DNA of 64,000 nucleotides from Bacilli bacterium (GCA_022652945.1 JALCRV010000011.1:6297-70296), one strand, 5' to 3'. Shown: positions 1,938 through 55,275, counted from the first letter of the stretch. Program-made: numbers and translations. Notes: a model not told the origin generated them from the letters alone.

Positions 1938-2033
1938 ATGTTAATTGAGCGAAGAAAAGCTAAAGGATTCCAGGAAATAATCGTTTCGCTTCACCAAGAT
2001 TCTTTCCGCCTCTATAGGTTTGAACATGCCTAA
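1938..2033 (+). CDS. 31-aa upstream ORF overlapping the TIR gene start
   Basis: GGAGG RBS 6 nt before ATG; MLIERRKAKGFQEIIVSLHQDSFRLYRFEHA; stop overlaps the ATG at 2026. Confidence 0.4.
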   Translation: MLIERRKAKGFQEIIVSLHQDSFRLYRFEHA

Positions 2034-11189: not shown

Positions 11190-11212
11190 TGATTTTTGGC
11201 CTTTCAGCGTAA

Positions 11213-11279
11213 GGAAAGCGCTACCGAAAACGTTTTCCTACATCAAGGCTATTATATAAAGAAGAAATCGCGAATGCAA
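11213..11279 (-). promoter_or_regulatory. cbpA promoter with two overlapping LacI/CcpA-type operators
   Basis: Minus strand TTGCAT-17-TATAAT (11279-11251); palindromes CGAAAACGTTTTCC (11225-11238) and GGAAAGCGCTACCG (11213-11226). Confidence 0.75.
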
Positions 11280-11446
11280 TTATTATTTATTTCATTTTTC
11301 AAAAAAGCTGTTGTTTTTGTAAACATCTCATAATTAGCAAAAGTGGCTTAAATACTGAAGATATATAGAATAAAGCACACTTTGAAAAAGCACGCTTTTT
11401 AATAATTTTTTAACGTGCGTAACAAAAGGTTTTTTTATTTTGAATG

Positions 11447-11509
11447 TTGACAAGGCAAAAAACAGGTGATATCTTCTAGTTAGCGAAAACGATTTCGGAA
11501 GCGATTACA
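11447..11509 (+). promoter_or_regulatory. lacI-ABC operon promoter with two overlapping LacI/CcpA-type operators
   Basis: TTGACA-17-(TG)TATCTT; CGAAAACGATTTCG (11484-11497) and CGGAAGCGATTACA (11496-11509). Confidence 0.75.
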
Positions 11510-11552
11510 TTCTCCATGATTGTCTTCGCCAAGATAGAAAGGGTTCCCAAGG

Positions 11553-12566
11553 ATGACCAAGATAAAAGATATTGCAAAAGCTTGTGGCGTATCTGTATCC
11601 ACCGTATCTAAAGCCCTCAATGGGAACTCGGATTTATCGGAAGAAACGGCTGCTCGTGTTCGGAAGGCAGCCAAAGAATTAGGCTACATTCCGAATTCCA
11701 ATGCGCGAGTTCTGAAGACTAACAGGTCTCATAACATCGGCGTCATCTTTGAGGATCCGACCTCATCCGGCTTGAAGCATGAGTACTTCTCTGGAATTCT
11801 GAATTCCATCAAAGACGAGGCGGAATCTTGCGGTTACGATGTGACGTTTATTTCTAACCACTTGGCCTCCATTAGCAATTCCTATTACGAGCACGCCCGG
11901 TTCCGGGGCTGCGATGGGGTGATTGTTGCTTCGGCTGATTTCCACAGCCCCAAAGTTGTCGAATTGATTGAATCGGAGATTCCTTCGGTGACTATCGATT
12001 ATGTCTTCGACAACCGTTCAGCCATTATGTCTGATAACTACGCCGGTCTCCACGATATCGTTCAGTACTTGTATATGAACGGTCATCGTAAGATAGCCTT
12101 CATCCACGGTGAAATGACTGCTGTCTGCCAGAAGAGACTCTCTAGTTATTACAAGACGATGGAAGGGTTTGGCTTAAAGGTTCCTGATGAATATGTTAAG
12201 CAAGCATTCTTCCATTTACCTAAGGCTAGCGGGGAAGCTACCAAGGAATTGTTAGCTCTTACCGATCGGCCAGATTGCATTATCTACCCTGATGATTACT
12301 CGATGTTAGGCGGAATCACCGCTTTAGAAGAAGCGGGGCTAGAGATTCCCGATGACATTAGCATCGTCGGTTACGATGGCATTCAGCTTTCACGCTTTAT
12401 GAGGCCGGTATTTACGACCTACGTTCAGGACAGTGAGAAAATCGGTAAATCCGCTGCCCATAAGTTAATTGAGACGATCGAGAGCCCTCGCACGTCCCAA
12501 GTTGAGCAGATAACCATAAAAGGTTGGCTGCAAGAGGGCAAAACGGTTAAGGCTTTAATTCGCTAA
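11553..12566 (+). CDS. LacI-family transcriptional regulator
   Basis: IKDIAKACGVSVSTVSKALN HTH, YIPN hinge, IPDDISIVGYD. Confidence 0.96.
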   Translation: MTKIKDIAKACGVSVSTVSKALNGNSDLSEETAARVRKAAKELGYIPNSNARVLKTNRSHNIGVIFEDPTSSGLKHEYFSGILNSIKDEAESCGYDVTFISNHLASISNSYYEHARFRGCDGVIVASADFHSPKVVELIESEIPSVTIDYVFDNRSAIMSDNYAGLHDIVQYLYMNGHRKIAFIHGEMTAVCQKRLSSYYKTMEGFGLKVPDEYVKQAFFHLPKASGEATKELLALTDRPDCIIYPDDYSMLGGITALEEAGLEIPDDISIVGYDGIQLSRFMRPVFTTYVQDSEKIGKSAAHKLIETIESPRTSQVEQITIKGWLQEGKTVKALIR

Positions 12567-12611
12567 TAGCGATTAAAGAAATAGTGTATTCACATAGAAA
12601 GGAAACTATTT

Positions 12612-14015
12612 ATGAAAAAGAAACTGTTTAGCTTAGTGATGGTCGTCGCTGCTGTTGGTCTTTTAGGGAGCTGCTCGGGTAACACTTCATCCAGTACGAA
12701 CGCCACCGATGGTGGAAAAGTTCTGAACATTGAATGCTGGAACACAGAATTTGAAGGCAGATTCCGTCATTATTGCAAGGATATGCTTTCTAACGCGACT
12801 GAAGATGATCCTTTATATGCTAATTCCACCGCTACTGATAAGAAGTGGGCTGTCCCTGATGCAGATGGCAACTTCACGATGAAAGATGGCACCAAGGTTG
12901 TCTTCAAGATCACTGATAACAAGAACAATGGTTATCAGAATGCTCTGGATGTCGATTTATTCAACCAGGATCAGGCTGAAGCTGATAACAAGGTTGATAT
13001 GTTCATGGTTGAAGCCGATTACGCTCTTAAGTATGTTAAATCCAATTCCACCTGCGATGTCATTAAAGATATCGGTCTGACCGAAGCTGATATGGCTGAT
13101 CAGTACCAGTACACCAAAGATATCGTCAAGGATGCCAGTGGCAACATTAAAGGCACCACTTGGCAGGCTTGCCCGGGACTTTATGCTTATCGTCGTGATA
13201 TTGCTAAAGATGTCTTAGGCTCGGATGATCCGGCGACTGTTCAGGCTGCGTTAGCTGATTGGACGAAGTTCAATTCCGTCGCTGCCTCCGCTAAAGCCAA
13301 AGGCTACTACATGGTTTCCGGCTACGATGATGCTTATCGTCCTTTCTCGAACAATGTTTCCGCTCCGTGGGTCGATGCGAACAAGAAGATCGTCGTTGAT
13401 CAGAAAATCAAGGATTGGATCTCCCAGACCAAGACTTTCTCCGAAAAGGGCTATAACCATGGCACTTCTCTCTGGAACAGCGACTGGACTGCTGATCAGA
13501 CAATGGCTGGCAAGGTCTTCGGCTTCTTCTATTCTACTTGGGGTATCAACTTCACTCTTAAAGACAATGCTGGTGATGCTGGCTTCGGCAAATGGGCTGT
13601 CTGCCAGGGACCTGCTTCCTACTATTGGGGTGGCTCTTGGATCAGCGCTGCTAAAGGCACCGATAACAAGTCTCAGATTGCTAAGATCATGAAGAGAATG
13701 ACCTGCGATAAGGCTACTTTGAAGCAGATTACCCTCGACACTCTTGATTACACCAACAATAAGTCTGCTATGAACGAAATCGCTGCTGATAAAACTTATG
13801 GCGCTGCGTTCTTAGGCGGTCAGAACCATATCGCTCTGTTTGCCAAGGCCGCTGAAACTATCAACATGAGCAATATCTCCGCTTATGATCAGGGCCTCAA
13901 TGAAGGACTTCAGGAAGCTATGAAGGATTACTTCCTTGGCACAATAAGTGAAGATAAGGCTTGGGAAAACTTCTACAAAGCTATCGCTGTCAAGTATCCG
14001 TCTCTTTCTCATTAA
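12612..14015 (+). CDS. Carbohydrate ABC substrate-binding lipoprotein (cellodextrin, by context)
   Basis: Lipobox LLGSC, CUT1 SBP features (YYWGGSW), context. Confidence 0.88.
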   Translation: MKKKLFSLVMVVAAVGLLGSCSGNTSSSTNATDGGKVLNIECWNTEFEGRFRHYCKDMLSNATEDDPLYANSTATDKKWAVPDADGNFTMKDGTKVVFKITDNKNNGYQNALDVDLFNQDQAEADNKVDMFMVEADYALKYVKSNSTCDVIKDIGLTEADMADQYQYTKDIVKDASGNIKGTTWQACPGLYAYRRDIAKDVLGSDDPATVQAALADWTKFNSVAASAKAKGYYMVSGYDDAYRPFSNNVSAPWVDANKKIVVDQKIKDWISQTKTFSEKGYNHGTSLWNSDWTADQTMAGKVFGFFYSTWGINFTLKDNAGDAGFGKWAVCQGPASYYWGGSWISAAKGTDNKSQIAKIMKRMTCDKATLKQITLDTLDYTNNKSAMNEIAADKTYGAAFLGGQNHIALFAKAAETINMSNISAYDQGLNEGLQEAMKDYFLGTISEDKAWENFYKAIAVKYPSLSH

Positions 14016-14027
14016 TCAGTTAAGCTT

Positions 14028-14078
14028 GGCAGAACTAGGACTGGATGGAACCAATCTTCCATCCAGCCCGTCTCTGCC
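14028..14078 (+). terminator. Intergenic stem-loop after SBP gene (mRNA stabiliser or partial terminator)
   Basis: GGCAGA..CTGGATGGAA / TTCCATCCAG..TCTGCC followed by TATTTTT. Confidence 0.65.
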
Positions 14079-14101
14079 TATTTTTATCGGAGGTTAGAAG
14101 G

Positions 14102-15130
14102 ATGCAAAATGAAGCTGTCATAACTGACTCCCGTTTTAAGCCATTCAAGGTTAGAACGAAAAAGAGAGCCATATCTTACGCAAAATGGGGATATATTTTC
14201 CTCATACCTTTTTTCGCTACATTTCTTTTCTTTTCGCTGATACCTCTATTGGAAACCTTCCATTATTCTTTCTATGAATATTGGCGCGATGGCTTGGACG
14301 TTATCGGCCCTAATTGGGTAGGCTTTAAAAACTATGGCGATATCCTAACTAATTCTTTCGGTGAGTTCTGGAAGGATTTAGGGAACACGATGATTATCTG
14401 GGTTATGGGCTTTGTCCCGCAGATAATTATCTCGTTGGTTCTTGCTATAATCTTTACTTCTGTGCGTCTTAAAGTACACGGAGCGCAGTTTTTCAAGACT
14501 GTCTTCTATATGCCTAACCTGGTTATGGCGGCGGCGATGGGACTATTGTTTTCTCAGCTTCTTTCCCAGTCTGGGCCAATTATGAGCATGCTTTTCGATG
14601 CCGGGATCATTCAAGAAAAATTCAATATGCTTAACCGCGTCTGGGATACTAGAGCAATCATTGGCTTTATTGATTTCCTGATGTGGTTTGGTAACACGAT
14701 GCTCCTTTTGATGTCTGGTGTGATGGGCATCGATGCTTCGATTTATGAAGCGGCTGCAATCGATGGATCTTCGGCCTGGAAGACTTTCTGGCATATTACG
14801 ATGCCTTTATTGATGCCGATTTTCATCTATGTTTTCATTACTTCTATGATCGGTGGCATCCAACTATACGATGCCGCCACGATCTTCACCCAGGGCAACG
14901 GCGGTGCGGAGAGAAGTTCTTATACGCTGATGATGTTCTTGTTCAATGTCGTAACCGGCGGTTCTCATGACTTAGGCCACGGCGGAGCCTTATCGGTTCT
15001 GATGTTTATTATCACGGGTCTCCTTTCGTTCTCAGTCTTTATTCTTACAGTCCCGAAAGAAGAAAGATTCCATTTTAAGAGCCGTAAGAAAAAACTTCAA
15101 AAGGAAGTTCAAGGAGGTATCTCAAGATGA
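14102..15130 (+). CDS. Carbohydrate ABC permease (MalF-like)
   Basis: WVGFKNY, EAA motif IYEAAAIDGSSAWKTFWHITMP; RBS GGAGG before ATG 14102. Confidence 0.93.
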   Translation: MQNEAVITDSRFKPFKVRTKKRAISYAKWGYIFLIPFFATFLFFSLIPLLETFHYSFYEYWRDGLDVIGPNWVGFKNYGDILTNSFGEFWKDLGNTMIIWVMGFVPQIIISLVLAIIFTSVRLKVHGAQFFKTVFYMPNLVMAAAMGLLFSQLLSQSGPIMSMLFDAGIIQEKFNMLNRVWDTRAIIGFIDFLMWFGNTMLLLMSGVMGIDASIYEAAAIDGSSAWKTFWHITMPLLMPIFIYVFITSMIGGIQLYDAATIFTQGNGGAERSSYTLMMFLFNVVTGGSHDLGHGGALSVLMFIITGLLSFSVFILTVPKEERFHFKSRKKKLQKEVQGGISR

Positions 15131-16047
15131 GTGAAGCTGCGATTATGAGATATGCTCAATTCTCAATCAAAACTGATAAAAAAGAGCTAAAGACTAAAGT
15201 CTATACCACCATCGAAAAAGTTCTAGTCTATCTGTTGATGGCAGTATTGACCTTCTTATGCATCTTCCCGTTCTATGTCATGATCATCAATTCGACTAGA
15301 AATTCTAGCGAGATTGCCGAAGGTATGGCTTGGTGGTTCTCATCGAGCCTTGCCGAAAACTGGCAAAAGGTATTCAAGACCCTGGAAGCTAATTACCCCA
15401 TGGTCCGCGCTATGGGTAATTCGTTGCTGATTTCTATAAGCTCTTCGCTTTTAACGGTATATTTCTCAGCTATGACCGCTTATGCCTTCCATCAGTACAA
15501 CTTCGTAGGGAAGAAGTTACTTTATTCCTTCATTCTTGTCATTATGATGATCCCGAGCCAAGTTTCGGCTATGGGTTTCATCAATCTGTGCAACCGTTTG
15601 AACATGATGAACACTTACTGGCCTCTGATCATTCCTTCGATTGCTTCGCCAGTCGTGGTCTTCTATATGAAGCAGTATCTGGATTCCGTTCTTCCTAATG
15701 AAATCGTCGAAGCAGCCCGTGTGGACGGTGCCGGAGAAATCCGCATCTTCCATCAGATTGTTCTTCCGGTCCTTAAACCGGCTTTGGCGGTTCAGATGAT
15801 CTTCGCCTTCGTCGGCAGCTGGAATAGTCTATTTATGCCTCAGATGATTATCAGCAAGCGCAATCTGCTGACCTTGCCACTAGTTATTCAGTCCTTATCT
15901 AACCTTTCGAATAACGATGCTTTCAAACTTGGCACGGGTGGGATGTATCTGATGATGACGGTCGCGGTCGTTCCGCTCCTTATCATCTATCTGGTTTTCT
16001 CTAGATTCATTGTTAAAGGCGTGACCTTGGGCTCCGTCAAAGGTTAA
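15127..16047 (+). CDS. Carbohydrate ABC permease (MalG-like)
   Basis: EIVEAARVDGAGE EAA motif, C-terminal GSVKG. Confidence 0.93.
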   Translation: MSEAAIMRYAQFSIKTDKKELKTKVYTTIEKVLVYLLMAVLTFLCIFPFYVMIINSTRNSSEIAEGMAWWFSSSLAENWQKVFKTLEANYPMVRAMGNSLLISISSSLLTVYFSAMTAYAFHQYNFVGKKLLYSFILVIMMIPSQVSAMGFINLCNRLNMMNTYWPLIIPSIASPVVVFYMKQYLDSVLPNEIVEAARVDGAGEIRIFHQIVLPVLKPALAVQMIFAFVGSWNSLFMPQMIISKRNLLTLPLVIQSLSNLSNNDAFKLGTGGMYLMMTVAVVPLLIIYLVFSRFIVKGVTLGSVKG

Positions 16048-16161
16048 ACTCAAATTCGCATCCTCCTTTTAACAAGGCGGTTGTCGCTTGATCAACGCAG
16101 CCGTCTTTTTGTTAGGCTTCTACCTATGTTTTCTTTATAATAATCTTAAGGAGCAGTTAAC

Positions 16162-17559
16162 ATGGATTCAGGTGATTTTTTCTGGGGAAGTGCTACTTCG
16201 GCCTATCAGATTGAAGGTGGCTTTAATGAAAACGGAAAAGGGGAGTCCATTTGGGATCGTTACGCTTCTGTTCCTAAAAATATCAAAGACGGGAAAGACG
16301 GAAAAAAAGCTTGCGATTCTTATCATAAGATGGATCAGGATATCGCTCTTTTAAAAGAACTGGGCGTTAACGCTTACCGCTTTTCTATCGCCTGGACCCG
16401 GGTTATTCCTGATGGAAAAGGCAAAGTCAATGAAGCTGGTCTTGATTATTATTCTCGCTTAGTTGATGAACTATTGAAGAATAACATTACGCCTTTTGTT
16501 ACTTTGTACCACTGGGATTTGCCCGAGCCTTTATTAGAAGAGGGGGGATTTTACGACAGGAATCTTCCGACTTATTTTGCTGCTTATGTTACTGCGGTCG
16601 TTAAGAAATTGGGCGATCGAGTTAAGCATTGGATTACGATCAATGAGCCAGAATGTATCATCGGCAACGGCTACGTCAATGGCACCCACGCTCCGGGGTA
16701 CAAAGAGACGGACACTAAAAAGATCCTATTAGCTATTCATAATCTTCTGAGGATGCATGGAGAAGGGGTGAAAGCTATTAGAGATAATTGCTCCGACGCT
16801 AAAGTAGGCTTTGTCGGAACTGATCGGGCTTTAATTCCACAAGATAAGGACGATGCCCATTTGGAAGAAGAATGCTATAAGCATTTCTTCAAAATCCAGA
16901 AGGACAGCCCCGCTTGGTCGGGAGCAATCTATTATGACCCTATATATTTAGGCGATTATCCTAAAGAGTATTATAAGATGTTCGCCGATGATTTGCCGTC
17001 AATTTCGAAGGAAGATCTAGAACTTATCCATCAGCCCCTTGATTTTATCGGCGAGAATAATTACGCTTCGGACTACTGTTTTTTAGCTGAACCTAGTACC
17101 TCCACTAAAAAAGGGAAAAGAGTCTTTACCATCAAAGACCCGAAGACGATGCCGTGCGCTGATATCTGGTGGGAGCAGATTACCCCTGAAGGGGTGTATT
17201 ATCTAGCAAAATATCTGACAAAACGCTATCATTTGCCACTGATTTTCACCGAGAACGGCATGTGCGATAACACTGAACCTTCTTCTGATCACCTGATTCA
17301 CGACACTCGTCGTTCAGACTACATTAAGAGTTATGTTGATTACGTCTTAAAGGCGAAGCGAGATGGAATTGATATTAGAGGATATTTCTACTGGTCCTTA
17401 TTAGATAATTTCGAATGGGGCGAAGGCTATAAGCCTCGCTTTGGATTAGTTTATCTGCCTTTCCCAGATACCACGCGAGTTAAAAAAGATTCTTTTGAGA
17501 CATATAAGAATCTGATAAAAGAGCAGATGGCGAAGGAAAAGGAAGGGAAGAAGGCTTAA
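16162..17559 (+). CDS. GH1 beta-glucosidase
   Basis: FFWGSATSAYQIEG, TLYHWDLP, acid/base INEP, nucleophile TENG, WSLLDNFEW. Confidence 0.96.
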   Translation: MDSGDFFWGSATSAYQIEGGFNENGKGESIWDRYASVPKNIKDGKDGKKACDSYHKMDQDIALLKELGVNAYRFSIAWTRVIPDGKGKVNEAGLDYYSRLVDELLKNNITPFVTLYHWDLPEPLLEEGGFYDRNLPTYFAAYVTAVVKKLGDRVKHWITINEPECIIGNGYVNGTHAPGYKETDTKKILLAIHNLLRMHGEGVKAIRDNCSDAKVGFVGTDRALIPQDKDDAHLEEECYKHFFKIQKDSPAWSGAIYYDPIYLGDYPKEYYKMFADDLPSISKEDLELIHQPLDFIGENNYASDYCFLAEPSTSTKKGKRVFTIKDPKTMPCADIWWEQITPEGVYYLAKYLTKRYHLPLIFTENGMCDNTEPSSDHLIHDTRRSDYIKSYVDYVLKAKRDGIDIRGYFYWSLLDNFEWGEGYKPRFGLVYLPFPDTTRVKKDSFETYKNLIKEQMAKEKEGKKA

Positions 17560-28708: not shown

Positions 28709-29647
28709 ATGAAAAAAGCTTTGCTGGCTCTGATTATCGGTCTGTCGGTCATCGCCTGTCCTATCCTCTATTTCCTCGTCGGGCCCGCTTTAGATCAAAA
28801 GGAACTGGGTATCCTTTATATTATTCTGATCATCGCTGGGGCTAGCGCCCTTTATTGCTTCGTAGCCGGAGAGTTAGCTCATAATAACTCCCAGATGGAT
28901 AAACTCTGGAGTTTGCTTCCGGAGACTTATCTCTGGATTATCGCTCTTAAAGGCGGAATGAGCCCCAGGCTTATTGTGATGGCCTCCTTAGCGACTCTTT
29001 GGGGCTTACGCTTAACCTTTAACTTTGCTCGTAAAGGTGCTTACCATTGGAAATTCTGGACCGGGAAGGAAGACTACCGTTGGCAAGTCCTCCGTTCCAG
29101 AAAGGAATTCCAACCTCATTGGAAATGGTTGGTCTTCAATCTGCTTTTTATCTCCATCTATCAGAACCTTCTGATCGTGATGATTACGCTTCCGGCCTTA
29201 GTCTCTATCGATTCGACTTTAGCCTTCGGTTGGATTGATTATCTCGCTGCTGGTTTGATGTTCTTCTTTATCGTTTATGAAACTATTGCCGATGAACAGC
29301 AATGGGCCTTCCAAACCAAGAAATGGAATATGCTGAAGGAAGGGAAAAAGTTAGAAGAACTGCCGAGTCCTTATAATAAAGGCTTTAATACCACGGGCTT
29401 ATGGGGAAGAAGCCGCCATCCTAATTATCTAGCTGAACAAGCTATTTGGATCGCTTTCTATGTCTTCAGCATCGGGGCGGGGATCGGCATCTTTAACTGG
29501 AGCATCATCGGAGCACTTTTATTGGTCGTTCTCTTCCTCGGGTCTTCTTCTTTCGCGGAAGAAATCAGTTCCTCTAAGTATCCTGAATATGCCTCTTATA
29601 AGAAAAAAGTCTCGAAATTCTTCCCGTGGAAGAAGTATCAGGACTGA
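28709..29647 (+). CDS. DUF1295 (steroid 5-alpha-reductase-like) membrane protein
   Basis: SQMDKLWS, WGLRL, EDYRW, ETIADEQQW.F, GLWGRSRHPNY.AE. Confidence 0.9.
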   Translation: MKKALLALIIGLSVIACPILYFLVGPALDQKELGILYIILIIAGASALYCFVAGELAHNNSQMDKLWSLLPETYLWIIALKGGMSPRLIVMASLATLWGLRLTFNFARKGAYHWKFWTGKEDYRWQVLRSRKEFQPHWKWLVFNLLFISIYQNLLIVMITLPALVSIDSTLAFGWIDYLAAGLMFFFIVYETIADEQQWAFQTKKWNMLKEGKKLEELPSPYNKGFNTTGLWGRSRHPNYLAEQAIWIAFYVFSIGAGIGIFNWSIIGALLLVVLFLGSSSFAEEISSSKYPEYASYKKKVSKFFPWKKYQD

Positions 29648-30257: not shown

Positions 30258-30920
30258 TTACTTTAAGAGAAACTTATTCTTCTTATATTCTATAAGTCCT
30301 TCTTTCGCCATGGAACTTAAAAGGCGCGATAAAGAAGAACGGTCGCAGCACAGAAAAGAAGCCATTTCCTCCCTTGAAAAAGGAATCGAAAAATATTCAT
30401 TCTTTTTTCCATGGGCTAAACTGAAAAGGAAAGAAAGGACTTTACCTTTCAGACCTTTTTCAGCTAAAACATTAAGCTTATCTTTCATTAACAGATCCTT
30501 ATCCGCCAAGAGAATCACTAAGCGAGTAATGACCATTTGACTATATTTACAATCAAGCTTTTTTAAAACTGCTTTTAAATTCAAAGCCAAGGCGGAGCCG
30601 TCTTCTTTAACTAAGGCGCTAACTCCATAATTCATCTTTTCTTTGATAGCGTACGCTTCTCCTAATGAATCCCCAGGCTTAAAGCTCTCGAGAATATTCA
30701 AATCACCTTTTGAAGAATACCTGACTAAATCGATCTTGCCTTCTAGTAAAAGAAAAGCCAGCTCGGCTTTTTCTCCTTCCTCGAAAAGAAAAGTATCCTT
30801 TTTTAAAAGAAGCTTTTTGGCATTAAGACACGAAAGAGCCTTATTAAGGTCAAGAAGAGAAAAGCCTTGGAATAAGGGATTCAAGAGAAGTATCTTCAAC
30901 TCCGAAGCAGTGAAATCCAT
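30258..30920 (-). CDS. Crp/Fnr-family regulator (HcpR-like by context)
   Basis: cNMP domain (LLEG.I.L, GDSLGE) and HTH SREEMASFLCCDRSSLSRLLS.M.KEGLI. Confidence 0.92.
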   Translation of the reverse strand: MDFTASELKILLLNPLFQGFSLLDLNKALSCLNAKKLLLKKDTFLFEEGEKAELAFLLLEGKIDLVRYSSKGDLNILESFKPGDSLGEAYAIKEKMNYGVSALVKEDGSALALNLKAVLKKLDCKYSQMVITRLVILLADKDLLMKDKLNVLAEKGLKGKVLSFLFSLAHGKKNEYFSIPFSREEMASFLCCDRSSLSRLLSSMAKEGLIEYKKNKFLLK

Positions 30921-30982: not shown

Positions 30983-31396
30983 GTGCTTATTAGTTTACTT
31001 TCCGCCTACCAGATCAGCGCGGAAGAATTCTTTGAGAAGATTAACTTAGCAAAGGCCGACCTGGTCTTAGATGTCCGCCTCTCAAATAAAAACCAGTTGG
31101 CCGGATTTACTAAGGAAGATACCTTAGCTTATTTGGTCCCGCGTTTAAGTAAGGCTTCTTACATTTACGATCCGTTTTTCGCCCCGGAGAAGGGACTGCT
31201 ATCAGATTATTTAGCGGGAAAGATCGATTTTGCTCAATTTAGTAAGTCCTATCTAAAAGCCCTGGATCAAAAAGGTGGAAAGCAGATCTTTAAAGAAAGA
31301 TACTCTTCTTATAATTCGATAGTCCTCATCGGGGCCATGACTAAAAAAAGACATTCGCATGTTGAAGCCTTAAAGGCTTACTTGGAGGAAAAATAA
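30983..31396 (+). CDS. DUF488-family protein
   Basis: SAEEFF..I......VLDVRL.N..QLAGFTK..L.Y, FAP; GTG start with AGGAGG. Confidence 0.75.
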   Translation: MLISLLSAYQISAEEFFEKINLAKADLVLDVRLSNKNQLAGFTKEDTLAYLVPRLSKASYIYDPFFAPEKGLLSDYLAGKIDFAQFSKSYLKALDQKGGKQIFKERYSSYNSIVLIGAMTKKRHSHVEALKAYLEEK

Positions 31397-31397
31397 C

Positions 31398-31739
31398 ATG
31401 AAAGAAACGAAAATTATTCAAAATATGGAAGAAAAGAAAGCCCAGTCTTTAAAAGACTTGATTACCGTGCAAGCTGGTTCGATCGTTAGCAAAATCCTAT
31501 TTCAAAACGAGGCTGTCTCTTTAACCTTGTTCTCCTTTGGAGAAGGGCAGGAAATCTCCACCCATCAGTCCGATGGGGATGCCTTAGTTCAAGTTTTAGA
31601 AGGGGAAGGTGTATTTACCATCGACGGGGAAAGACATATCGTAAAAGAAGGGGAAAGCATTCTGATGCCCCATAACCATCCTCACGCTTTAAAAGCCGAA
31701 AAGGATTTCAAGATGCTACTGACCGTGGTCTTCGCATAG
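31398..31739 (+). CDS. Cupin-domain protein
   Basis: LFSFGEGQEISTH..GDALVQVLEG, MPHNHPHAL.A..FKMLL. Confidence 0.9.
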   Translation: MKETKIIQNMEEKKAQSLKDLITVQAGSIVSKILFQNEAVSLTLFSFGEGQEISTHQSDGDALVQVLEGEGVFTIDGERHIVKEGESILMPHNHPHALKAEKDFKMLLTVVFA

Positions 31740-31789
31740 GTAAGATATTTCCCGCTTCATTATCTTTCGAATCTTAAAGGACTTTTAAG

Positions 31790-31805
31790 TGATAAGCGCT
31801 TTTCA
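31790..31805. promoter_or_regulatory. LacI/CcpA-like palindrome upstream of the tocopherol-cyclase-like gene
   Basis: TGATAAGCGCTTTTCA. Confidence 0.4.
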
Positions 31806-31850
31806 ATGAAGAAGATTTTGATTTATATTTAAGTGAAGAAGGAAAAGAAC

Positions 31851-32987
31851 ATGAATCAAGGAAGCGATATCTCTAGAGATGCCTTTATGTTAAAAGGGGT
31901 GCTAAGCAAAGAAGGCTACGACTGGTGGTGGCATTCTTTCACCGCCCATAACAAAAAGACGGGAGAAGAAAAAGCTTTCTTTATCGAATTCTTCTTAATC
32001 AATCCCGCTCTAGGTGGGGATAAGCCTCTTTTTGGCCTGGTTGACGGGAAAGAGGGACACTCTCCCTCCTATCTGATGGTCAATGTCGGGACCTGGGGCG
32101 AAAAAGCCCTGCAGCTTCACCGTTTCTTCGGCTGGTCTAAAGTCAAGGTTGCCAAAGGAGTCCCTTTTCAAATCGAAGCTGATGATTGCTTCTTAAATGA
32201 AGAAGAAACCCGTGGTAGAGTGGAGGTCGATGAGAAAGAAAATAAAAAGCATCCGGAATGGTTCTCCGATTCAGGTACCCTTATCTGGGATTTAAAGATC
32301 CATAAGCTGATTCCTTATAACGTCGGCTACGGAGCCTCGAAGCTTTTAAGGGATGCGGCAGCCTTCCAGATGTACTGGCATGCGGAAGGGATGAAAACTG
32401 AATTCGAAGGAACCCTTAAACTTGATGGGGAAGAATACGTAGTCGAAAGAAAAAACAGCTACGGATACGCCGATAAAAACTGGGGCAAGGATTTCACCTC
32501 TCCGTGGCTTTGGCTAGCCTCCTCTCATCTAATCAGCAAAAAGACCGGTAAGGAACTGACCTCCTCCGCTTTTGATATCGGTGGAGGACGCCCGAAGATC
32601 GGGACGATCGCCTTAGATCGTAAACTGCTCGGGATGTTTAACTATGAAGGCAAGGAATACGAATTCAATTTCTCCAAGTTCTGGACGCACACCAAGACCA
32701 AATTCTCCTTTAGGGAGACAAACGAGGAAGCTATCTGGCATGTCGAACAGGAAAACCTGCTTTCGAAAATGGTGAGCGATATCGTCTGCCTAAAAAAAGG
32801 AATGATCTTAATAAGATATGAATCTCCGGATGGGAAAATGCTCCATAAGCATCTGAATAACGGGGGAAATGGGAAAGGTACTATTAAGCTATATCAGAAG
32901 AAAGTCGGTAAACTTATCCTCATTGATGAAATCACCGCCTTAAATGTGGGCTGCGAATACGGGGAATACGAAGAAGAGAAGAAATAA
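31851..32987 (+). CDS. Tocopherol cyclase-family (lipocalin/CrtC-like) protein
   Basis: GYDWWWHSF, FQMYWHAEGM, YGYADKNWGKDF.SPW.W, GCEYGEY. Confidence 0.8.
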   Translation: MNQGSDISRDAFMLKGVLSKEGYDWWWHSFTAHNKKTGEEKAFFIEFFLINPALGGDKPLFGLVDGKEGHSPSYLMVNVGTWGEKALQLHRFFGWSKVKVAKGVPFQIEADDCFLNEEETRGRVEVDEKENKKHPEWFSDSGTLIWDLKIHKLIPYNVGYGASKLLRDAAAFQMYWHAEGMKTEFEGTLKLDGEEYVVERKNSYGYADKNWGKDFTSPWLWLASSHLISKKTGKELTSSAFDIGGGRPKIGTIALDRKLLGMFNYEGKEYEFNFSKFWTHTKTKFSFRETNEEAIWHVEQENLLSKMVSDIVCLKKGMILIRYESPDGKMLHKHLNNGGNGKGTIKLYQKKVGKLILIDEITALNVGCEYGEYEEEKK

Positions 32988-33100: not shown

Positions 33101-33778
33101 ATGGACAAATTCCGTGTAATTGAAGTTAAAGAAAGCGTTTTAGCCGATAACGACAAAACAGCTGCCCAAGTAAGAAAAGCCCTAAAAGAGAAAAATGTCT
33201 TCCTCATCAATCTGATGTCCTCCCCGGGAAGCGGGAAGACAACTTTGCTCGTGGCCTTACTTAATCTTTTAAAGAGCAAATTAAAGATCGGCGTGATGGA
33301 AGCCGATATCGACGCCACGGTCGATGCTAAAACCATCGAAGAAAAAACCGGAGTCAAGACTATTCAGCTTCACACCTGCGGAGAATGTCACTTGGATGCC
33401 AAGATGACTAAAGAAGGCCTTGAAGGCTTCGGGGTGGAAGGCTTGGATCTGGTGATTCTGGAAAATGTCGGTAACCTCGTCTGCCCGGCGGAATTCGATA
33501 TCGGAGCTAGCCTTCCGATGACGATTCTTTCCGTCCCCGAAGGCGATGATAAACCTTTAAAGTATCCTTTGATGTTTAAAGTCTCCCATTGCTTCGTCTT
33601 TTCCAAAATCGATGCGGCTTCCTACTTTAATTTCGATATCAAGAAAGCTGAAGAAAGTATTTTAAGACTTAATAAAGATGCCGTCTTCTTCCCTTTGTCA
33701 GCTAAAACTGGGGAAGGGGTGGAGGCCTTAGCTGATTATATTTATTCGGAAGTGAAGAAATATCAGGCTCATAAATAG
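33101..33778 (+). CDS. hypB: Nickel-insertion GTPase HypB
   Basis: SSPGSGKTT, metal-binding CHLDA, ENVGNLVCPAEFD, EGDDKPLKYP, SAKTGEG. Confidence 0.95.
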   Translation: MDKFRVIEVKESVLADNDKTAAQVRKALKEKNVFLINLMSSPGSGKTTLLVALLNLLKSKLKIGVMEADIDATVDAKTIEEKTGVKTIQLHTCGECHLDAKMTKEGLEGFGVEGLDLVILENVGNLVCPAEFDIGASLPMTILSVPEGDDKPLKYPLMFKVSHCFVFSKIDAASYFNFDIKKAEESILRLNKDAVFFPLSAKTGEGVEALADYIYSEVKKYQAHK

Positions 33779-33795
33779 AAAGGACCTGCAAAAAT

Positions 33796-36648
33796 ATGTC
33801 AGATGAGAAATTAAGAACGGATGATCAGCATTTCGCGGAGGCTAAATACGCTTCTGGGAAAAAGAAGAACTCATTGCCCGAGGGAGAAAAACCCCGCAAA
33901 TGGATTTTAAAGGTCTGCAACCATATCCAGGATCTTCCCGGCGTCCACGTTATACCCGGAGATCCGGAATATAACGCTTTAGCTTCCTGCATCGAAGATG
34001 AGGAATGCAAAGTCGTCTTGAAGATGAAGCTTATGAAGCATTACTCTTTAGGGACTTTGATGAAAATGACCAAGCTTCAGGCAGATAAATTACAAGAGAT
34101 GCTGAAGCATATGTGCTACGTCGGTCTTTTATGCTTCGATCCAGTCGATCCGGAAGTGGAGCTGGGAGGAGACGGGAAAAAGCAAGCTGGCTACTGGTAT
34201 ACCATTTTTGTCCCTGGCATTTTAGAGGCGATGGTCAACAATGTCGCTAACGTTGAAAAACATCCGATTATCGCTCAGTCCTTCTCTGAATACACGATTA
34301 AAAGAATCATCCCTTTAGCCGGTAATCTTCCGACTGGAAGAGGTGTTATGCGTGTCATCCCGATTGAGTCGGCGATTAAAGATGACCCGAAGCATACTAA
34401 GGCCGAAGAGATTTCCCATTACGTTGATTCCGCTACCGATATCTCGGTTGCGGCTTGCTCCTGCCGTGTTTCTAGAAGATTGATGAATGAAGGCTGCGGA
34501 CATCTTGAGCAGGATATGTGCCTGCAGTTTAATGAAGCGGCCAGAGATTTTATCGAGACGGGCAGGGGAAGAAGAATCAGCAAGGAAGAGGCCAATGCGA
34601 TTATCAAAAAGGCCGAAGATAATGGTCTGATGCACGAAACCCCGAATATCGATGGGGACGGGAAGACCCACGCGCTTTGTAACTGCTGCGGTTGTTCCTG
34701 CTTCTCTTTAAGAACCGGGGAGTATTTCCACACTTCGACTTTAATCCGCAGCAACTACATTTCTCATGTCGACCCTGAAAAATGCGTGGCTTGCGGGGAG
34801 TGCGTCGAAGTCTGCCCGATGAACGCTTTACGCTTAGGGGAAAGGCTGGAAAATAAAAAGCCGGTCATGGTTAAAGTCCCTCAGTCCGCTTACGATTATA
34901 AATGGGGTCCGGAGAAATGGAATCCGGATTTCCGTTTCAACCGTAAATACGTCATGGAAGAAAGCGGTACGGCGCCTTGTAAGGTCGCTTGCCCGGCTCA
35001 TATCGCGATCGAAGGTTATATCGCTTTAGCTAAAGAAGGACGCTATGAAGAGGCTCTAGAACTGATTAAGAAAAAGAACCCGTTCCCGGCGGTTTGCGGG
35101 CGTGTATGCAATAAACGCTGCGAGGATGCCTGCACCCGTTGCACCCTCGGGGATAAGCTTCCGGTCTCAATCGACGAAATCAAAAAGTTCGTCGCGGAAC
35201 TGGATATGGATAAGTCTAAACGTCCCTTACCTAAGATACAGCATCCGGAATATGCCTCTCATAAGATGGCGATTATCGGGGCGGGGCCGGCGGGACTTTC
35301 CTGCGCTTACTATCTGGCGGTTATGGGTTATAAGGTCACGGCCTTTGAAAAAGAGAAGATGCTTGGCGGCATGCTGACGATGGGCATCCCTTCTTTCCGT
35401 CTCTCTAAAGAAGTTGTCAATGCGGAAATCGATGTCTTAAAAGATCTCGGAGTGGAGTTTAAGACCGGTATCGAAGTCGGTAAGGACGTGACGATTGAAC
35501 AGTTAAGAAAAGAAGGCTACGAAGCCTTCTATGTCGCCATCGGCGCCCAGGGCGGAAGAAAACTTATGGTCCCGGGTGAGGAGGCGGAAGGTGTGATTTC
35601 CGGTATTGATTTCTTAAGGGAAGTCAATCTAGGAAAGGCGAAGAAACTGAAGGGCCACGTCGTTTTGATGGGCGGAGGAAATGTCGCGATTGATGTAGCG
35701 AGAACCGCTGTTAGATGGGGTGGAGAAAAAGTCGATCTGTACTGCTTAGAGACCCCGGAGATTATGACCGCGGGGAAAGAAGAAATCGAAGAAGCCAAGA
35801 AGGAAGGCATCTCGATCAATAACGGCTGGGGTGTTAAAGAATTCCACGCCAAAGACGGAAAATTGTTCGAGGTTGTCCTGAAGAAATGCACTTCGGTCTT
35901 TGATCAAGACCATAAATTCAATCCGACTTACGATGAAAGCCAGACTCAGACTGTGCAATGCGATTACTTCCTCTCCGCAATCGGCCAGTCCTTCCTCTGG
36001 GGCGATTTGCTTAAAGGGACGAAGGCTGTGGTCAGCCATGGAAGATTAGAGGCTGATCCTCTGACTTACCAGACCGGGGAGAAAGATATCTTCACCGGCG
36101 GAGATTGTTATCATGGGACCAGGTTTGCGATCGATGCGATCGCCACGGGGCAGGAAGGAGCAGAATCCATGCACCGTTACGTCCATAAAGGACAGTCTTT
36201 ACTGATCGGACGTGTCCAGAATCCGTATTTAGCTAAGTACGAACTTGATAAAGATAACATCATCGTCGAAGGCTGGGATAATACTCCTCGTCAGGAACCT
36301 GAAAGGATGAAAGTCAAAAACCCGATGACTGATGATCGGGTCATCTTCTCAGAAGAGCAGATTAAGAAAGAATGTTCACGCTGCTTAAGATGCGGAAGAA
36401 CTTACGTCGATGAGACCATGTGCGTCGGCTGCGGGCTTTGCACCACCCGCTGCAAGTTCGATGCGATCCATCTCGAACGCCGCTTCGAGGCGAAGGGGAC
36501 TAATTATAAGAACATTTCTTCCTCTTCGATTCCGCATATCCTGACCCGTAACCTGAAGATTGTCTTCACGGGGAAAGGAAAGCAGAAATACATCGCGAAA
36601 GACGAGATTGTTAAGCACGAAGAAGAAAAGAAAGAGACCATCAAGTAA
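33796..36648 (+). CDS. Multi-Fe-S, FAD-dependent NAD(P)H oxidoreductase (GltD/DPD-like core plus Cys-rich N-terminal domain)
   Basis: CSCR, CNCCGCSC, CxxCxxCxxxCP, APC..ACP, CGRVC...CE..C, GAGPAG, GGGNVA.D, C-terminal CLRC and CxxCxxCxxxC. Confidence 0.9.
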   Translation: MSDEKLRTDDQHFAEAKYASGKKKNSLPEGEKPRKWILKVCNHIQDLPGVHVIPGDPEYNALASCIEDEECKVVLKMKLMKHYSLGTLMKMTKLQADKLQEMLKHMCYVGLLCFDPVDPEVELGGDGKKQAGYWYTIFVPGILEAMVNNVANVEKHPIIAQSFSEYTIKRIIPLAGNLPTGRGVMRVIPIESAIKDDPKHTKAEEISHYVDSATDISVAACSCRVSRRLMNEGCGHLEQDMCLQFNEAARDFIETGRGRRISKEEANAIIKKAEDNGLMHETPNIDGDGKTHALCNCCGCSCFSLRTGEYFHTSTLIRSNYISHVDPEKCVACGECVEVCPMNALRLGERLENKKPVMVKVPQSAYDYKWGPEKWNPDFRFNRKYVMEESGTAPCKVACPAHIAIEGYIALAKEGRYEEALELIKKKNPFPAVCGRVCNKRCEDACTRCTLGDKLPVSIDEIKKFVAELDMDKSKRPLPKIQHPEYASHKMAIIGAGPAGLSCAYYLAVMGYKVTAFEKEKMLGGMLTMGIPSFRLSKEVVNAEIDVLKDLGVEFKTGIEVGKDVTIEQLRKEGYEAFYVAIGAQGGRKLMVPGEEAEGVISGIDFLREVNLGKAKKLKGHVVLMGGGNVAIDVARTAVRWGGEKVDLYCLETPEIMTAGKEEIEEAKKEGISINNGWGVKEFHAKDGKLFEVVLKKCTSVFDQDHKFNPTYDESQTQTVQCDYFLSAIGQSFLWGDLLKGTKAVVSHGRLEADPLTYQTGEKDIFTGGDCYHGTRFAIDAIATGQEGAESMHRYVHKGQSLLIGRVQNPYLAKYELDKDNIIVEGWDNTPRQEPERMKVKNPMTDDRVIFSEEQIKKECSRCLRCGRTYVDETMCVGCGLCTTRCKFDAIHLERRFEAKGTNYKNISSSSIPHILTRNLKIVFTGKGKQKYIAKDEIVKHEEEKKETIK

Positions 36649-36653
36649 CTCTT

Positions 36654-36998
36654 ATGCATGAGATGGGCATCGTCTTTTCTCTGATGGATACTCTCCGTTC
36701 CGTGATGAAAGACAATAACGTAACGGAGTTGAAATCCGTGACTTTAGAAGTCGGGGAAGCTTCTTTAGTGGTCCCCAGGTTCATGGAAGAATGCTGGGAT
36801 GCTGCCAAAAGAAAAAGCGAATTCGCTGCTACCGACTTAAAAATCGTCATCGTCAAGGCGGAAGGAAGATGCAACCGCTGCGGAAAAATATTCCTGATTT
36901 CCGATAATAAAAGAATCTGCCCGCACTGCGGGGCGGCGGATGAATTCGTAACCGTGAGCGGCACGGAACTGAATATTAAGGAAATCGAAGCGGCTTAG
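36654..36998 (+). CDS. hypA: Nickel metallochaperone HypA
   Basis: N-terminal MHE Ni motif, CNRC and CPHC Zn motifs, G.EL.IKEIE. Confidence 0.95.
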   Translation: MHEMGIVFSLMDTLRSVMKDNNVTELKSVTLEVGEASLVVPRFMEECWDAAKRKSEFAATDLKIVIVKAEGRCNRCGKIFLISDNKRICPHCGAADEFVTVSGTELNIKEIEAA

Positions 36999-37012: not shown

Positions 37013-37041
37013 GAGAAGCGAGTTCCATCTCGCTTCTTTTT
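37013..37041 (+). terminator. Rho-independent terminator after hypA
   Basis: AGAAGCGAG-TTCCAT-CTCGCTTCT followed by T-tract. Confidence 0.8.
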
Positions 37042-52764: not shown

Positions 52765-55275
52765 TTATTCTAGGGATTTTTTAGTAATCTTCAGCATTCT
52801 GATCTCATGGGGCTGCAAAGTCACTTCATATTTAAGAACTCCGTCTTTACCGACCTCCGCTTCATGGAGGCGGTAAGAAGGATGGCATTCGACTTTTAAC
52901 ATCCTTTCGCTTTCTTGATCAGGCAGCTCCAATCCGTTAGTCATCTTCATCCATTGATCGAAAACTGAGCCGTGAGTCCGGTTAACGTATTCCTCTTCCA
53001 GACGGTAAGTCCCTTGAGGCATATTGGTAAAGCGGATAAAGACATCCTTAGAGGTCTGAGCTTGGAAGGCATCGTAACGCTTCTCATTAGGCAAAGTGGA
53101 AAGCTGTCCTTCAGCGAAGAGATCGTTCACATGGATATAATTCGACATCACGGCGACCAGATTATCTTCTTCCCCTTCCGTCACTATCAACTCATCTCCT
53201 TTAAAGACGAGCTCATCTTTCAGCTGAGCGAGGAAATACATTCCATAATAAGGCGGCTTCTTGATGCCGTTACGGGTAAATAAACCGTGTCCTCCATGGA
53301 ACAAAGCGGCGTACTCGGGAACTTCAAAGATCGTATCGGACATCGACCAGTAAGCGTAGCCATCTAACTCATCGTAACAGTCGATGAGGTTTTTAACGAT
53401 ATAGGCACCTTTATAGGCGGTATCATTAATCAAAGAGCGATGGGAGGTTGTCGAATTCCATTCGGTGATATAGATCGGCAGATGGATCCCGGTCAGGGAA
53501 GTGAAATACTCCTGCTTTTCTTTGATTCTCCCAACCTCTTTTTTCATCGCATCGGGATCGATATCCATCTTGATCCCGTCGCCTTCGATCGCATCTTTAA
53601 AAATCATCCCGAGCTGGGACATCGGATAATAATTTACATGGAGAAAATCCGGGACTCGGGGAGCCATCTCTTTAAGAAGGTCCTCAACAAAGGTGCCTTT
53701 AGTTAAAGTCCAAGAGACTAAGGAAGGTGAACCGAAGCGGATATCGGAATCGATAGATTTCACCGCATCGAAAGTAGCGATATAGAACTTATTAAAGGAA
53801 TGGAAATCGATAAAGCCGAACATCTTCGTATTCGTCTCCGGCTCATTCCATAAGGAGAAAAGCCAGGACTCTACTTCCTTCTTTCCGTAGCGGGTGAGGA
53901 CGTGAAGGGTGAATTTTTTAACTAACTCCACCCATTTATTCAAATCCTGCGGTTCCGAGGTGATTAAAGGAACATGGAAAACGGTCTTGTCCTTATATTT
54001 AGCGAGAGCTTCAGGCATAAAAGACAGCTGGACGAGAGGCTTTAAACCGATAGAGAGCAGAAAATCAAAAATCTTATCCAAAGAAGCAAAGTTAAAAATC
54101 TCTTTATGCTTATTATTAAAGGAATAGACGGATAAGGCATCATCGAAAAGACCGTGGAACTTAATATAATGGAATCCGATTTCCTTTTGCATTTCCTTCA
54201 GCATCGATTGGATATCTTCCCTTAAAAGGTCAGAAGCCCTCCCGACGGCGCAGAAGTTTTTAAAAGTGTGTTTTAACAGGCCGAGCCGCGCCTGAAAATC
54301 AACTTCGAAGGTCTTTGATACGGTGCCGGCGTGAGATAAAGAAGAAGTCGAGATAGGTGCGTTTTCCAGCATCTCGAAAAGCTTAGCTAAGTAAGAAGAC
54401 TTCTCGAAGTCCTGGTAAAAGGAAGAATTGTCGTTTTTCTCGTCATTGACCGGAGATGTAGACTTCTTTCTTGTCTTTGAAGGCAGTTCCTTATAAACCT
54501 TCTTATGCATGCTGACAAAAGAGCGGGTGTTATTAAACCCGGATTGCTCGGCGATCTCATCGATTGAAAGGGAAGAGTTATATAAGAGAGTCTCCGCATG
54601 GTAAAATCGCTGCTCCGAAAGATAATCCTTAAAAGTCATCCCGATGCTCTTATCAAAAAGGCGGGAAAGATAGGCCGGGGAGAAAGAAAACTTCTCCGCT
54701 AAGGAATTAAGAGAGATATCTTCTTTATAGTTCTCCTTAAGATAGGAAATTATTTCTTCAAACTTCGTCACTTGCTTTTCCGTAGGCAAACTTTGGATAG
54801 AGGAACGGAAATTAGTGATCAGTTCGAAATAAAGGCCCAAAGCCAAAGAGTGGATGCGGATTTCCGTATTGGCTGAATTCTCAGAATGGACCTTAACCAT
54901 CTCAGCCATGAGTTTTTTGATCCAAGAGTAATCCTTGCTATGGTCTTTAGAAGAATCGACTTGGAAGGAAGCGTTCGTCTCGATCGTCGGATCCAGTTCC
55001 TTAGTGAAATCAATCTGCAGAGCTAAGATCACCGCCGACTCTTTAGCGGAAATGGAATGCAAAGAATAAGGATTAATCAGGATCACATCATCCTCATTAA
55101 GCATCGAAGTCTTCCCATCGATGATGACCGAGCAGGAGTTCTCCAGGATATAGAGGATTTCATAGCAGGTCTGCCAATGGACGGGGAAGTATTTTGTCTT
55201 ATGTAAAAAAATCTTGAGATTCAAAGGACCTTTAAAGTCGATAATCTGGTAGGCATTCTCAGAAGGGTTATTCAT
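52765..55275 (-). CDS. AraC-family regulator fused to a GH39 glycosidase domain
   Basis: Cupin (HWQ..YEI), AraC HTH (YLSRLF, IAEQSGF), then GH39 (KFHGLF, WNEP, ITEWN, FHGGHGL). Confidence 0.9.
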   Translation of the reverse strand: MNNPSENAYQIIDFKGPLNLKIFLHKTKYFPVHWQTCYEILYILENSCSVIIDGKTSMLNEDDVILINPYSLHSISAKESAVILALQIDFTKELDPTIETNASFQVDSSKDHSKDYSWIKKLMAEMVKVHSENSANTEIRIHSLALGLYFELITNFRSSIQSLPTEKQVTKFEEIISYLKENYKEDISLNSLAEKFSFSPAYLSRLFDKSIGMTFKDYLSEQRFYHAETLLYNSSLSIDEIAEQSGFNNTRSFVSMHKKVYKELPSKTRKKSTSPVNDEKNDNSSFYQDFEKSSYLAKLFEMLENAPISTSSLSHAGTVSKTFEVDFQARLGLLKHTFKNFCAVGRASDLLREDIQSMLKEMQKEIGFHYIKFHGLFDDALSVYSFNNKHKEIFNFASLDKIFDFLLSIGLKPLVQLSFMPEALAKYKDKTVFHVPLITSEPQDLNKWVELVKKFTLHVLTRYGKKEVESWLFSLWNEPETNTKMFGFIDFHSFNKFYIATFDAVKSIDSDIRFGSPSLVSWTLTKGTFVEDLLKEMAPRVPDFLHVNYYPMSQLGMIFKDAIEGDGIKMDIDPDAMKKEVGRIKEKQEYFTSLTGIHLPIYITEWNSTTSHRSLINDTAYKGAYIVKNLIDCYDELDGYAYWSMSDTIFEVPEYAALFHGGHGLFTRNGIKKPPYYGMYFLAQLKDELVFKGDELIVTEGEEDNLVAVMSNYIHVNDLFAEGQLSTLPNEKRYDAFQAQTSKDVFIRFTNMPQGTYRLEEEYVNRTHGSVFDQWMKMTNGLELPDQESERMLKVECHPSYRLHEAEVGKDGVLKYEVTLQPHEIRMLKITKKSLE

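Follow-up and report, generated by a model that had tools for sequence, protein, structure and literature searches.

A hypB–hypA operon enclosing an IsrA-like iron–sulfur flavoprotein, a candidate nickel-dependent oxidoreductase, in a Bacilli bacterium

In a 64,000-nucleotide stretch of the genome of a Bacilli bacterium (GCA_022652945.1, JALCRV010000011.1:6297-70296; called the window here, with positions counted from its first letter), three genes on the plus strand between positions 33101 and 36998 form one operon. The first, hypB (33101-33778), encodes a nickel-delivering GTPase of 225 residues that belongs to the short type, having neither a His-rich nor a CxxCGC N-terminus. It is followed after 17 bp by a gene for a 950-residue oxidoreductase (33796-36648), an iron–sulfur (Fe-S) flavoprotein of the 'clade 9' type to which the putative isoprene reductase IsrA belongs and the presumed client of the two Hyp proteins. 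After a further 5 bp comes hypA (36654-36998), encoding a nickel metallochaperone of 114 residues with an N-terminal MHE motif and a zinc site made up of two CxxC motifs. A terminator-like hairpin with a T tail (37013-37038, plus strand; a 10-bp stem with five GC pairs, then TTTATT) lies 15 bp past the hypA stop codon, a placement consistent with the end of the operon; because nine such sites occur in the region where 5.4 are expected, the hairpin alone is weak evidence. The open reading frame (ORF) positions and the hairpin scan bear out the three-gene layout described in a first-pass annotation of this DNA, which had proposed the enclosed enzyme as the dedicated client of HypA and HypB. From the sequence evidence set out below, we consider it probable that HypA and HypB insert nickel into a Cys/His site of the IsrA-like enzyme and that this site is fed from NAD(P)H.

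HypA and HypB supply nickel to hydrogenases and, in some species, to urease, and to our knowledge every known client of such a pair is a nickel enzyme. Both maturases encoded here keep their metal ligands, in agreement with the first-pass annotation. With TIGR00073, HypB reaches 225.9 bits (cut-off 121.2); it also matches PF02492 and contains the P-loop GSGKT as well as the motifs ECHLDA and ENVGNLVCP, with the CH...C nickel site of the G-domain kept. HypA matches PF01155 with 98.8 bits (gathering cut-off 28.9), and all 44 HypA proteins linked to the enzyme family have its M1-H2-E3 and C73/C76/C89/C92. The nickel site and P-loop of the HypB G-domain and the MHE motif and zinc ribbon of HypA are those of the systems that load [NiFe]-hydrogenase and Helicobacter urease; unlike those systems, however, they occur in a genome without matches for the hydrogenase large subunit, HypD, or urease, and their client would be a flavo-Fe-S enzyme. 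Genome-wide, there is one HypA match and one match to the cobW/HypB family.

The C-terminal two thirds of the 950-residue protein have well-characterized structural relatives, the closest solved ones being NfnB (5jca_L, E 5e-62), GltD (6s6s_G), and dihydropyrimidine dehydrogenase (DPD; 1gt8_A), with E-values from 5e-62 to 5e-47. A first ferredoxin motif, C330/C333/C336/C340, lies in a PF00037 match at residues 325-345 (34768-34830) and is invariant in 20 aligned sequences and in 11 relatives. It is followed by a Fer4_20 domain of the two-[4Fe-4S] GltD/NfnB/DPD type (PF14691, residues 392-473, 34969-35214; 72.8 bits, cut-off 25.8) and by a module binding flavin adenine dinucleotide (FAD) and NAD(P)H (Pyr_redox_2, PF07992, residues 490-785, 35263-36150; 86.3 bits, cut-off 26.1), the GAGPAG and GGGNVAIDVAR motifs of which are conserved in the family. 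Near the C-terminus, C863, C866, C876, C879, C882, and C886 (36382-36477), all six invariant, including in the 11 relatives, overlap weak Fer4_15/Fer4_21 matches at residues 870-894. By analogy with the published IsrA model (PMC10134865), this motif would be the C-terminal half of a split ferredoxin-like pair whose other half is the first ferredoxin motif. The domain matches and solved relatives thus confirm the GltD/DPD-like module and the ferredoxin motifs that had been read from the sequence at first pass. All NCBIfam equivalog cut-offs for the glutamate synthase small subunit and NfnB are missed (best, NF009410, 430 versus 516; TIGR01316, 260 versus 472), and the protein contains no PF03063 (carbon monoxide dehydrogenase (CODH)/prismane) domain. 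In its FAD/NAD(P)H fold and its Fer4_20 domain with two [4Fe-4S] clusters it is like NfnB, GltD, and the N-terminal module of DPD. Those proteins, however, send electrons to a partner subunit or an FMN domain, whereas in the 950-residue protein the module is joined to a Cys/His-rich domain for which no relatives are known.

Residues 1-320, which constitute this N-terminal domain, match no Pfam family; the motifs CSCR, GCGH, DMC, and HALCNCCGCSC noted at first pass are all present in the translated ORF. Residues 45-328 were modelled confidently with AlphaFold2 (pLDDT, the per-residue confidence measure, 89.5); together with VIA-align, the model delimits a winged-helix subdomain at about residues 60-140 (33964-34215). 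Model residues ~19-95 align with MarR, ArsR, and Z-alpha winged helices at Z 8-9.8, a range that the tool rates as common, and it is through this part only that the model of the whole domain matches solved folds. The proposed metal (nickel) active site would lie in the Cys/His-rich subdomain that follows (residues 168-328, 34297-34779). Modelled alone, the Cys-rich part reaches a pLDDT of 80.6, and its best matches among solved structures are a VIA Z of 3.5 (rmsd 4.0, 88 aligned) and a Foldseek E of 0.94; this lack of a structural match is not proof of a new fold. Among sequences of the PDB, a search with the N-domain sequence gave one chance-level match and a profile search none at E ≤ 10, and the fragment clusters that an Atlas look-up gave for the Cys-rich part were all either unnamed or labelled Fer4, with scores of at most 0.90. 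Complex prediction of the N-domain with HypA, run without controls, yielded scores of 0.01 and 0.00, the mark being 0.32.

Searched on their own, the N-terminal 330 residues recover 2185 proteins at E ≤ 1e-3, none of them named beyond 'FAD-dependent oxidoreductase'. We scanned one genome per species for homologs, which yielded at least 600 matched stretches, at least 583 of them encoding relatives, and kept the best 80 loci, which come from Bacillota, Treponema, Sphaerochaeta, Leptospirales, Anaerolineae, Collinsella, and others. With the HypA and HypB of the window as phmmer queries on the flanks of these loci, hypA was found within 2 kb of the enzyme gene in 64 of the 80 and hypB in 46; 69 loci have one or the other, and 41 have both. 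Where each flank extends for 1.5 kb or more (64 loci), the corresponding counts are 54 for hypA, 41 for hypB, and 56 for either. The same gene order recurs in records of Bacillota, Spirochaetota, Chloroflexota, and Actinomycetota, so that the neighbourhood survey suggested at first pass finds the linkage conserved in several phyla. A gene for DUF5692, a family without assigned function that could be a nickel or substrate transporter, lies upstream of hypB in 40 of the 80 loci (e.g., L024:8030-9094, 396.5 bits), and a GntR regulator lies nearby in 21; beyond these and the hyp genes, no neighbour recurs widely among the 80. Multiplied chaperone genes were seen beside the enzyme at single loci: three identical hypA copies within 7 kb in a Clostridium record (L030:12651-19762), two tandem hypA, as in the isr operon described below (L063:12679-13376), and two tandem hypB in a relative from the same genus (L105:7940-9280).

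Many of the genomes encoding homologs also carry hydrogenase markers. The [NiFe]-hydrogenase large subunit (PF00374) is matched in 36 of the 80 (22 of 50 plus 14 of 30) and HypD in 38, while 41 have neither, an absence that is unproven because many of them are metagenome-assembled genomes. In 33 of these 41, hypA or hypB lies beside the enzyme gene, in 24 both do, and HypA is present somewhere in 40 (79 of the 80 overall). Among the 39 genomes with hydrogenase markers, 18 have hypA only beside the enzyme (e.g., Collinsella records), a pattern that could be explained if the enzyme had a HypA of its own but shared the HypB of the hyp operon.

A similarly close association is seen within the organism's own lineage, represented by 41 genomes (that of the window and 40 relatives of 0.9-2.0 Mb). 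Searched for with the N-domain profile, the enzyme is matched in 13 of the 41, and an intact hypA above the cut-off is present in exactly those same 13; copy numbers follow each other as well, with two HypA and two enzymes in each of G086, G089, and G090. The [NiFe]-hydrogenase large subunit is matched in none of the 41. This is as clean as such patterns get, yet it is a pattern and not a statistic, because related genomes are not independent. Of 12 related regions, all have hypA adjacent to the enzyme gene and nine have hypB. Comparative genomics, in the form of the linkage across phyla, the presence of HypA in 40 of 41 genomes without hydrogenase markers, and the 13-of-13 coupling in the lineage, thus strongly supports the proposal that the enzyme is a dedicated HypA/HypB client. 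Two degraded genes were encountered among the relatives. One genome that lacks the enzyme has a further HypA match above the cut-off, a HypA-like frame interrupted by two in-frame TAA stops (G118:C1:57449-57751), which looks like a decayed remnant left after enzyme loss. At L104 (G090:C6, ~9067-11689, minus strand), one of two enzyme copies is recovered in three tblastn pieces with an in-frame TAA and is possibly a pseudogene; hypA is still adjacent to it.

A search for other nickel clients in the 2.09-Mb assembly (20 contigs, 92.73% complete) returned none of the families sought. The window contains no hydrogenase, hypCDEF, or urease family among its 45 ORFs of at least 90 residues, as had been noted at first pass. 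The whole genome gave no match to PF00374, PF03063, PF00449 (urease alpha), PF09861 (LarA), or PF01924 (HypD, the sole member of hypCDEF searched genome-wide), so that the genome-encoded [NiFe]-hydrogenase or urease that could have undermined the first-pass proposal was not found in the assembled part. It could be argued that the adjacency is meaningless and that HypA and HypB serve a nickel enzyme whose gene lies in the 7% of the genome missing from the assembly, as the completeness value would allow. We give this explanation almost no weight, for the gene order repeats in four phyla, and of the 41 lineage genomes the 13 with an intact hypA are precisely the 13 with the enzyme, while a [NiFe] large subunit is matched in none.

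To delineate the putative metal site, we aligned 67 N-domains, namely that of the 950-residue protein and those of 66 loci, leaving out seven loci that fall short of the domain start and seven near-duplicate Collinsella loci. Nine residues, C221, C223, R224, C242, H280, C295, N296, C297, and C302, are invariant in all 67 and form a core of six Cys with a His, an Arg, and an Asn. Two variants of the site are built around it. Variant 1 (48 of 67, including the 950-residue protein) adds C234-G-H236 and C298-x-C300 (CNCCGCSC), that is, three Cys and a His; variant 2 (19 of 67) lacks C298 and C300 and has Asp, Glu, or Gln in place of H236. Both are found in the organism's own lineage, at times within one genome, and the 11 relatives' copies comprise eight of variant 2 and three of variant 1; the 950-residue protein is only 42-48% identical to the copies of relatives from the same genus. 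In 14 of the 19 variant-2 loci hypA still adjoins the enzyme gene. Since the linkage persists in variants without C298, C300, and H236, the nickel, if present, is more likely bound by the shared core residues C221, C223, C242, C295, C297, C302, and H280 than by the extra Cys3His of variant 1, which may hold a further metal or cluster.

The enzyme belongs to a family that has been described before. Kronen et al. (2023, mSystems, PMC10134865) reported IsrA as a 901-residue putative isoprene reductase of Acetobacterium wieringae ISORED-2 (VUZ27132.1), encoded in a five-gene isr operon with two hypA, one hypB, and a ferredoxin gene; the operon proteins increase with isoprene, and the ISORED-2 genome is without [NiFe]-hydrogenase genes and hypCDEF. 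The same paper assigns full-length homologs from Firmicutes, Spirochaetes, Tenericutes, Actinobacteria, Chloroflexi, and others to a 'clade 9', finds HypA adjoining 73% and HypB 56% of 988 homologs (DUF5692, 0.4), and proposes nickel at a Cys6 'cluster V' close to a predicted substrate tunnel. The HypA and HypB neighbour rates of our 80 loci are similar to these values (0.73/0.56), and DUF5692 is found at 40 of 80 against 0.4. The N-terminal ~270 residues of IsrA are described as lacking a known domain, with CxC pairs at 180/182 and 254/256 and a ferredoxin motif at 289-300 (PMC10134865). Subtracting 41 from the numbering of the 950-residue protein brings C221/C223 to 180/182, C295/C297 to 254/256, and 330-340 to 289-300, and on the strength of these matching positions we filed the protein in the 'clade 9' family. 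It has the full-length architecture of ~900 residues, the two CxC pairs and the Cys6 set at the published spacing, and adjacent hypA and hypB genes.

Both proteins are ~900-950 residues long, have an N-domain of ~270-320 residues of no known family with two equally spaced CxC pairs, and share the split ferredoxin pair, the Fer4_20 domain, and the FAD/NAD(P)H module; hypA and hypB adjoin the gene in both, the hosts are without [NiFe]-hydrogenase genes, and the phyla are the same, 'Tenericutes' included. In contrast to the isr operon, the operon in the window has three genes and not five, with neither a second hypA nor a ferredoxin gene carrying the N-domain, and its enzyme has an N-terminal extension of ~40 residues relative to IsrA. 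Of 91 matches to shorter or split forms, most are fragments at contig ends; four proteins of 334-418 residues (P0203-P0206; 32-41% identity, with a Fer4 dicluster) may be stand-alone N-domain ferredoxins like that of the isr operon. Two preprints from 2026 on Pelotomaculum repeat the nickel-enzyme idea, one of them reporting that in an enrichment hypA and hypB are ~373-fold and ~585-fold up, respectively, with isoprene. The statement made at first pass that no enzyme of this type has been characterized therefore stands as regards biochemistry, for which our literature searches found nothing, but not as regards novelty: the family, its link to HypA and HypB, and a nickel site had all been proposed in PMC10134865, and credit for the basic nickel-enzyme idea belongs to Kronen et al. 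The operon is a further member of an already proposed, biochemically uncharacterized family and not its first sighting. What is new relative to the 2023 paper is the Cys6 core with its His, Arg, and Asn, the two site variants, and the Cys-rich subdomain without a match among solved structures.

Several observations weigh against a nickel site loaded by HypA and HypB, or against carrying over what is known of IsrA. HypA falls below the NCBIfam equivalog cut-off (TIGR00100, 63.1 versus 88.1), which marks it as a divergent HypA whose metal could differ. The genome search found no CbiM/NikM, NicO, or DUF5692 transporter; Nik/Opp-type ABC systems lay outside this search, and for DUF5692 the control genomes likewise gave nothing. 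The survey of known clients left out the chaperone-free nickel enzymes glyoxalase I and acireductone dioxygenase, and with the assembly at 92.73% a known nickel enzyme could sit in the missing part. Neither hypA nor hypB lies within 2 kb of the enzyme gene in 11 of the 80 loci, and literature searches turned up no biochemical study of, and no nickel measurement for, any family member. The 950-residue protein was assigned to the 'clade 9' family from the published description of IsrA. Finally, PMC10134865 states that in other Acetobacterium species homologs sharing 47-49% identity with IsrA fail to bring about isoprene reduction, so that the substrate of IsrA is not transferable to the 950-residue protein.

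Some of these observations would be accommodated if the N-domain carried Fe-S clusters only, for example a non-cubane or double cluster on its six to nine Cys, and if HypA and HypB delivered zinc, cobalt, or iron or acted in assembly or folding, without any nickel. The nine Cys are enough for two Fe-S clusters, and the divergence of HypA and the missing transporter matches would agree with a metal other than nickel. The nickel ligands M1-H2-E3 of HypA are nonetheless invariant in 44 of 44 sequences, HypB scores above its equivalog cut-off and keeps its CH...C nickel site, and the clients of HypA/HypB pairs known to us are nickel enzymes throughout. An Fe-S-only domain therefore appears unlikely to us, even though CxC motifs are found in Fe-S proteins too (PMC10134865), and we retain a nickel-containing site as the preferred interpretation.

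For an enzyme with such a nickel site, we propose the following electron path. The reduction of FAD by NAD(P)H in the GltD/NfnB-like module is shown by homology, and the electrons would next enter the Fer4_20 domain with its two [4Fe-4S] clusters. From there, to judge by the motifs and the published IsrA model, they would travel via the ferredoxin-like pair (motifs 330-340 and 876-886) to the metal site in the Cys/His-rich subdomain (168-328), where the substrate would be reduced. Nickel would be inserted at the Cys/His site by the GTPase HypB together with HypA, as gene linkage and phyletic coupling suggest. By analogy with IsrA, our best guess for the substrate is a compound of plant or dietary origin with a C=C bond, either unactivated or conjugated, the reduction of which would serve as an electron sink for a small-genome fermentative member of the Bacillota.

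The substrate probably differs from that of IsrA. That the enzyme is a functional IsrA orthologue converting isoprene to methylbutenes would agree with its architecture and its chaperone genes, which are as in IsrA. Set against this are the missing second hypA and N-domain ferredoxin of the five-gene isr operon, the negative results for the Acetobacterium homologs at 47-49% identity, the low identity (42-48%) of even same-genus copies to the 950-residue protein, and the existence in the family of two or more active-site variants, with several paralogs in a genome, a sign that substrates differ. In view of this divergence, paralogy, and the negative results, isoprene itself is an unlikely substrate of the 950-residue enzyme, and we regard functional orthology with IsrA as improbable.

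The site could alternatively convert a small inorganic molecule, in which case the protein would be a new NAD(P)H-linked Ni-Fe-S enzyme acting on H2, CO, or CO2 and not an alkene reductase. Ni-Fe-S sites are known from CODH and acetyl-CoA synthase (ACS), and the Cys-Gly-Cys triplet C298-G299-C300 presumably recalls the nickel site of ACS; [NiFe]-hydrogenase, moreover, is not matched in any of the 41 lineage genomes. The CCG domain of HdrB likewise carries non-cubane clusters on a Cys-rich site. The closely spaced Cys of the ACS A-cluster and of HdrB (CxC, CC, Cys-Gly-Cys) resemble those of the Cys-rich subdomain in motif style only, with no sequence or fold match between the sites. The comparison with ACS was already drawn in PMC10134865. 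Against a small inorganic substrate stand the absence of the triplet in 19 of 67 N-domains, 14 of which keep hypA nevertheless, the lack of sequence or fold similarity to CODH, ACS, or hydrogenases, and the absence of hypCDEF, required for CN and CO ligands and counted as missing from a genome search that covered HypD. The only physiological evidence known to us for the family, moreover, points to isoprene. We therefore consider the conversion of a small inorganic molecule very improbable and favour the reduction of a C=C bond at a nickel site.

The genes around the operon add some context. A promoter scan of the region found no sigma-70-like promoter upstream of hypB, and the three upstream genes on the same strand (30983-32987), encoding DUF488, a cupin, and a 384-residue protein, may therefore share the operon transcript. 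A Crp/Fnr-family regulator (30258-30920, minus strand) is divergent from the DUF488 and cupin genes (30983-31739, plus strand), which are co-directional with the operon and separated by short gaps; this regulator may control the operon. The Crp-family regulator, DUF488, and cupin genes were not found beside the enzyme in the 12 related regions. The 384-residue protein (31833-32987, plus strand) has a weak tocopherol-cyclase match (PF14249, 28.8 bits versus a cut-off of 26.6) and no NCBIfam family. A copy with 58% identity lies at L103:11723-12781 (minus strand), ~3 kb from an enzyme–hypA pair, in one of the 12 related regions, and the protein might bear on an isoprenoid-like substrate. A DUF1295 membrane protein (28709-29647, plus strand, 143.6 bits) is encoded 3.5 kb upstream.

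At the start of the window, an IS21-type pair (a protein with a Mu-transposase C-terminal domain and an IstB ATPase, 38-1502 and 2020-2841, plus strand) is followed by a TIR-domain protein; the GC content is 0.57 in this stretch and then 0.34 at 4-6 kb, and the stretch is probably a mobile or defence island. Glycoside hydrolases (GH) of families GH94 (cellobiose/cellodextrin phosphorylase type), GH1, GH39, and GH3, a LacI regulator, and sugar ABC transporters are encoded at 8766-17559, 52765-55275, and 60780-62498, from which the organism appears to live on plant glycans. The other ORFs of the window encode enzymes of sugar use, transporters, regulators, and an insertion element.

Taken together, the data allow a wider proposal, which we advance tentatively, as somewhat less than an even chance. 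The family would represent a new class of nickel enzyme in which a Ni or Ni-Fe-S centre, built by HypA and HypB on the Cys6-His site of a domain whose fold is unsolved, and fed from NAD(P)H through FAD and four [4Fe-4S] clusters, hydrogenates an inert C=C bond or another hard substrate. The Cys9His2 and Cys6-7His1 variants, which often coexist in a single small genome, would be paralogs, each adapted to a different substrate, and the enzymes would constitute a nickel-dependent electron sink of reduced-genome gut or rumen Bacillota.

Few classes of nickel enzyme are known, and a nickel site wired to flavin and Fe-S clusters that reduces unactivated alkenes would, if true, add another, with relevance to both bioinorganic chemistry and biocatalysis. 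For mutagenesis and metal analysis, concrete targets are provided by the two variants of the active site and by the strict coupling to hypA. With 2185 protein relatives and at least 583 genome stretches encoding them, the family is widespread in anaerobes, and that genomes of ~1-2 Mb without hydrogenase keep the enzyme along with its own chaperones argues for an important role in redox balance.

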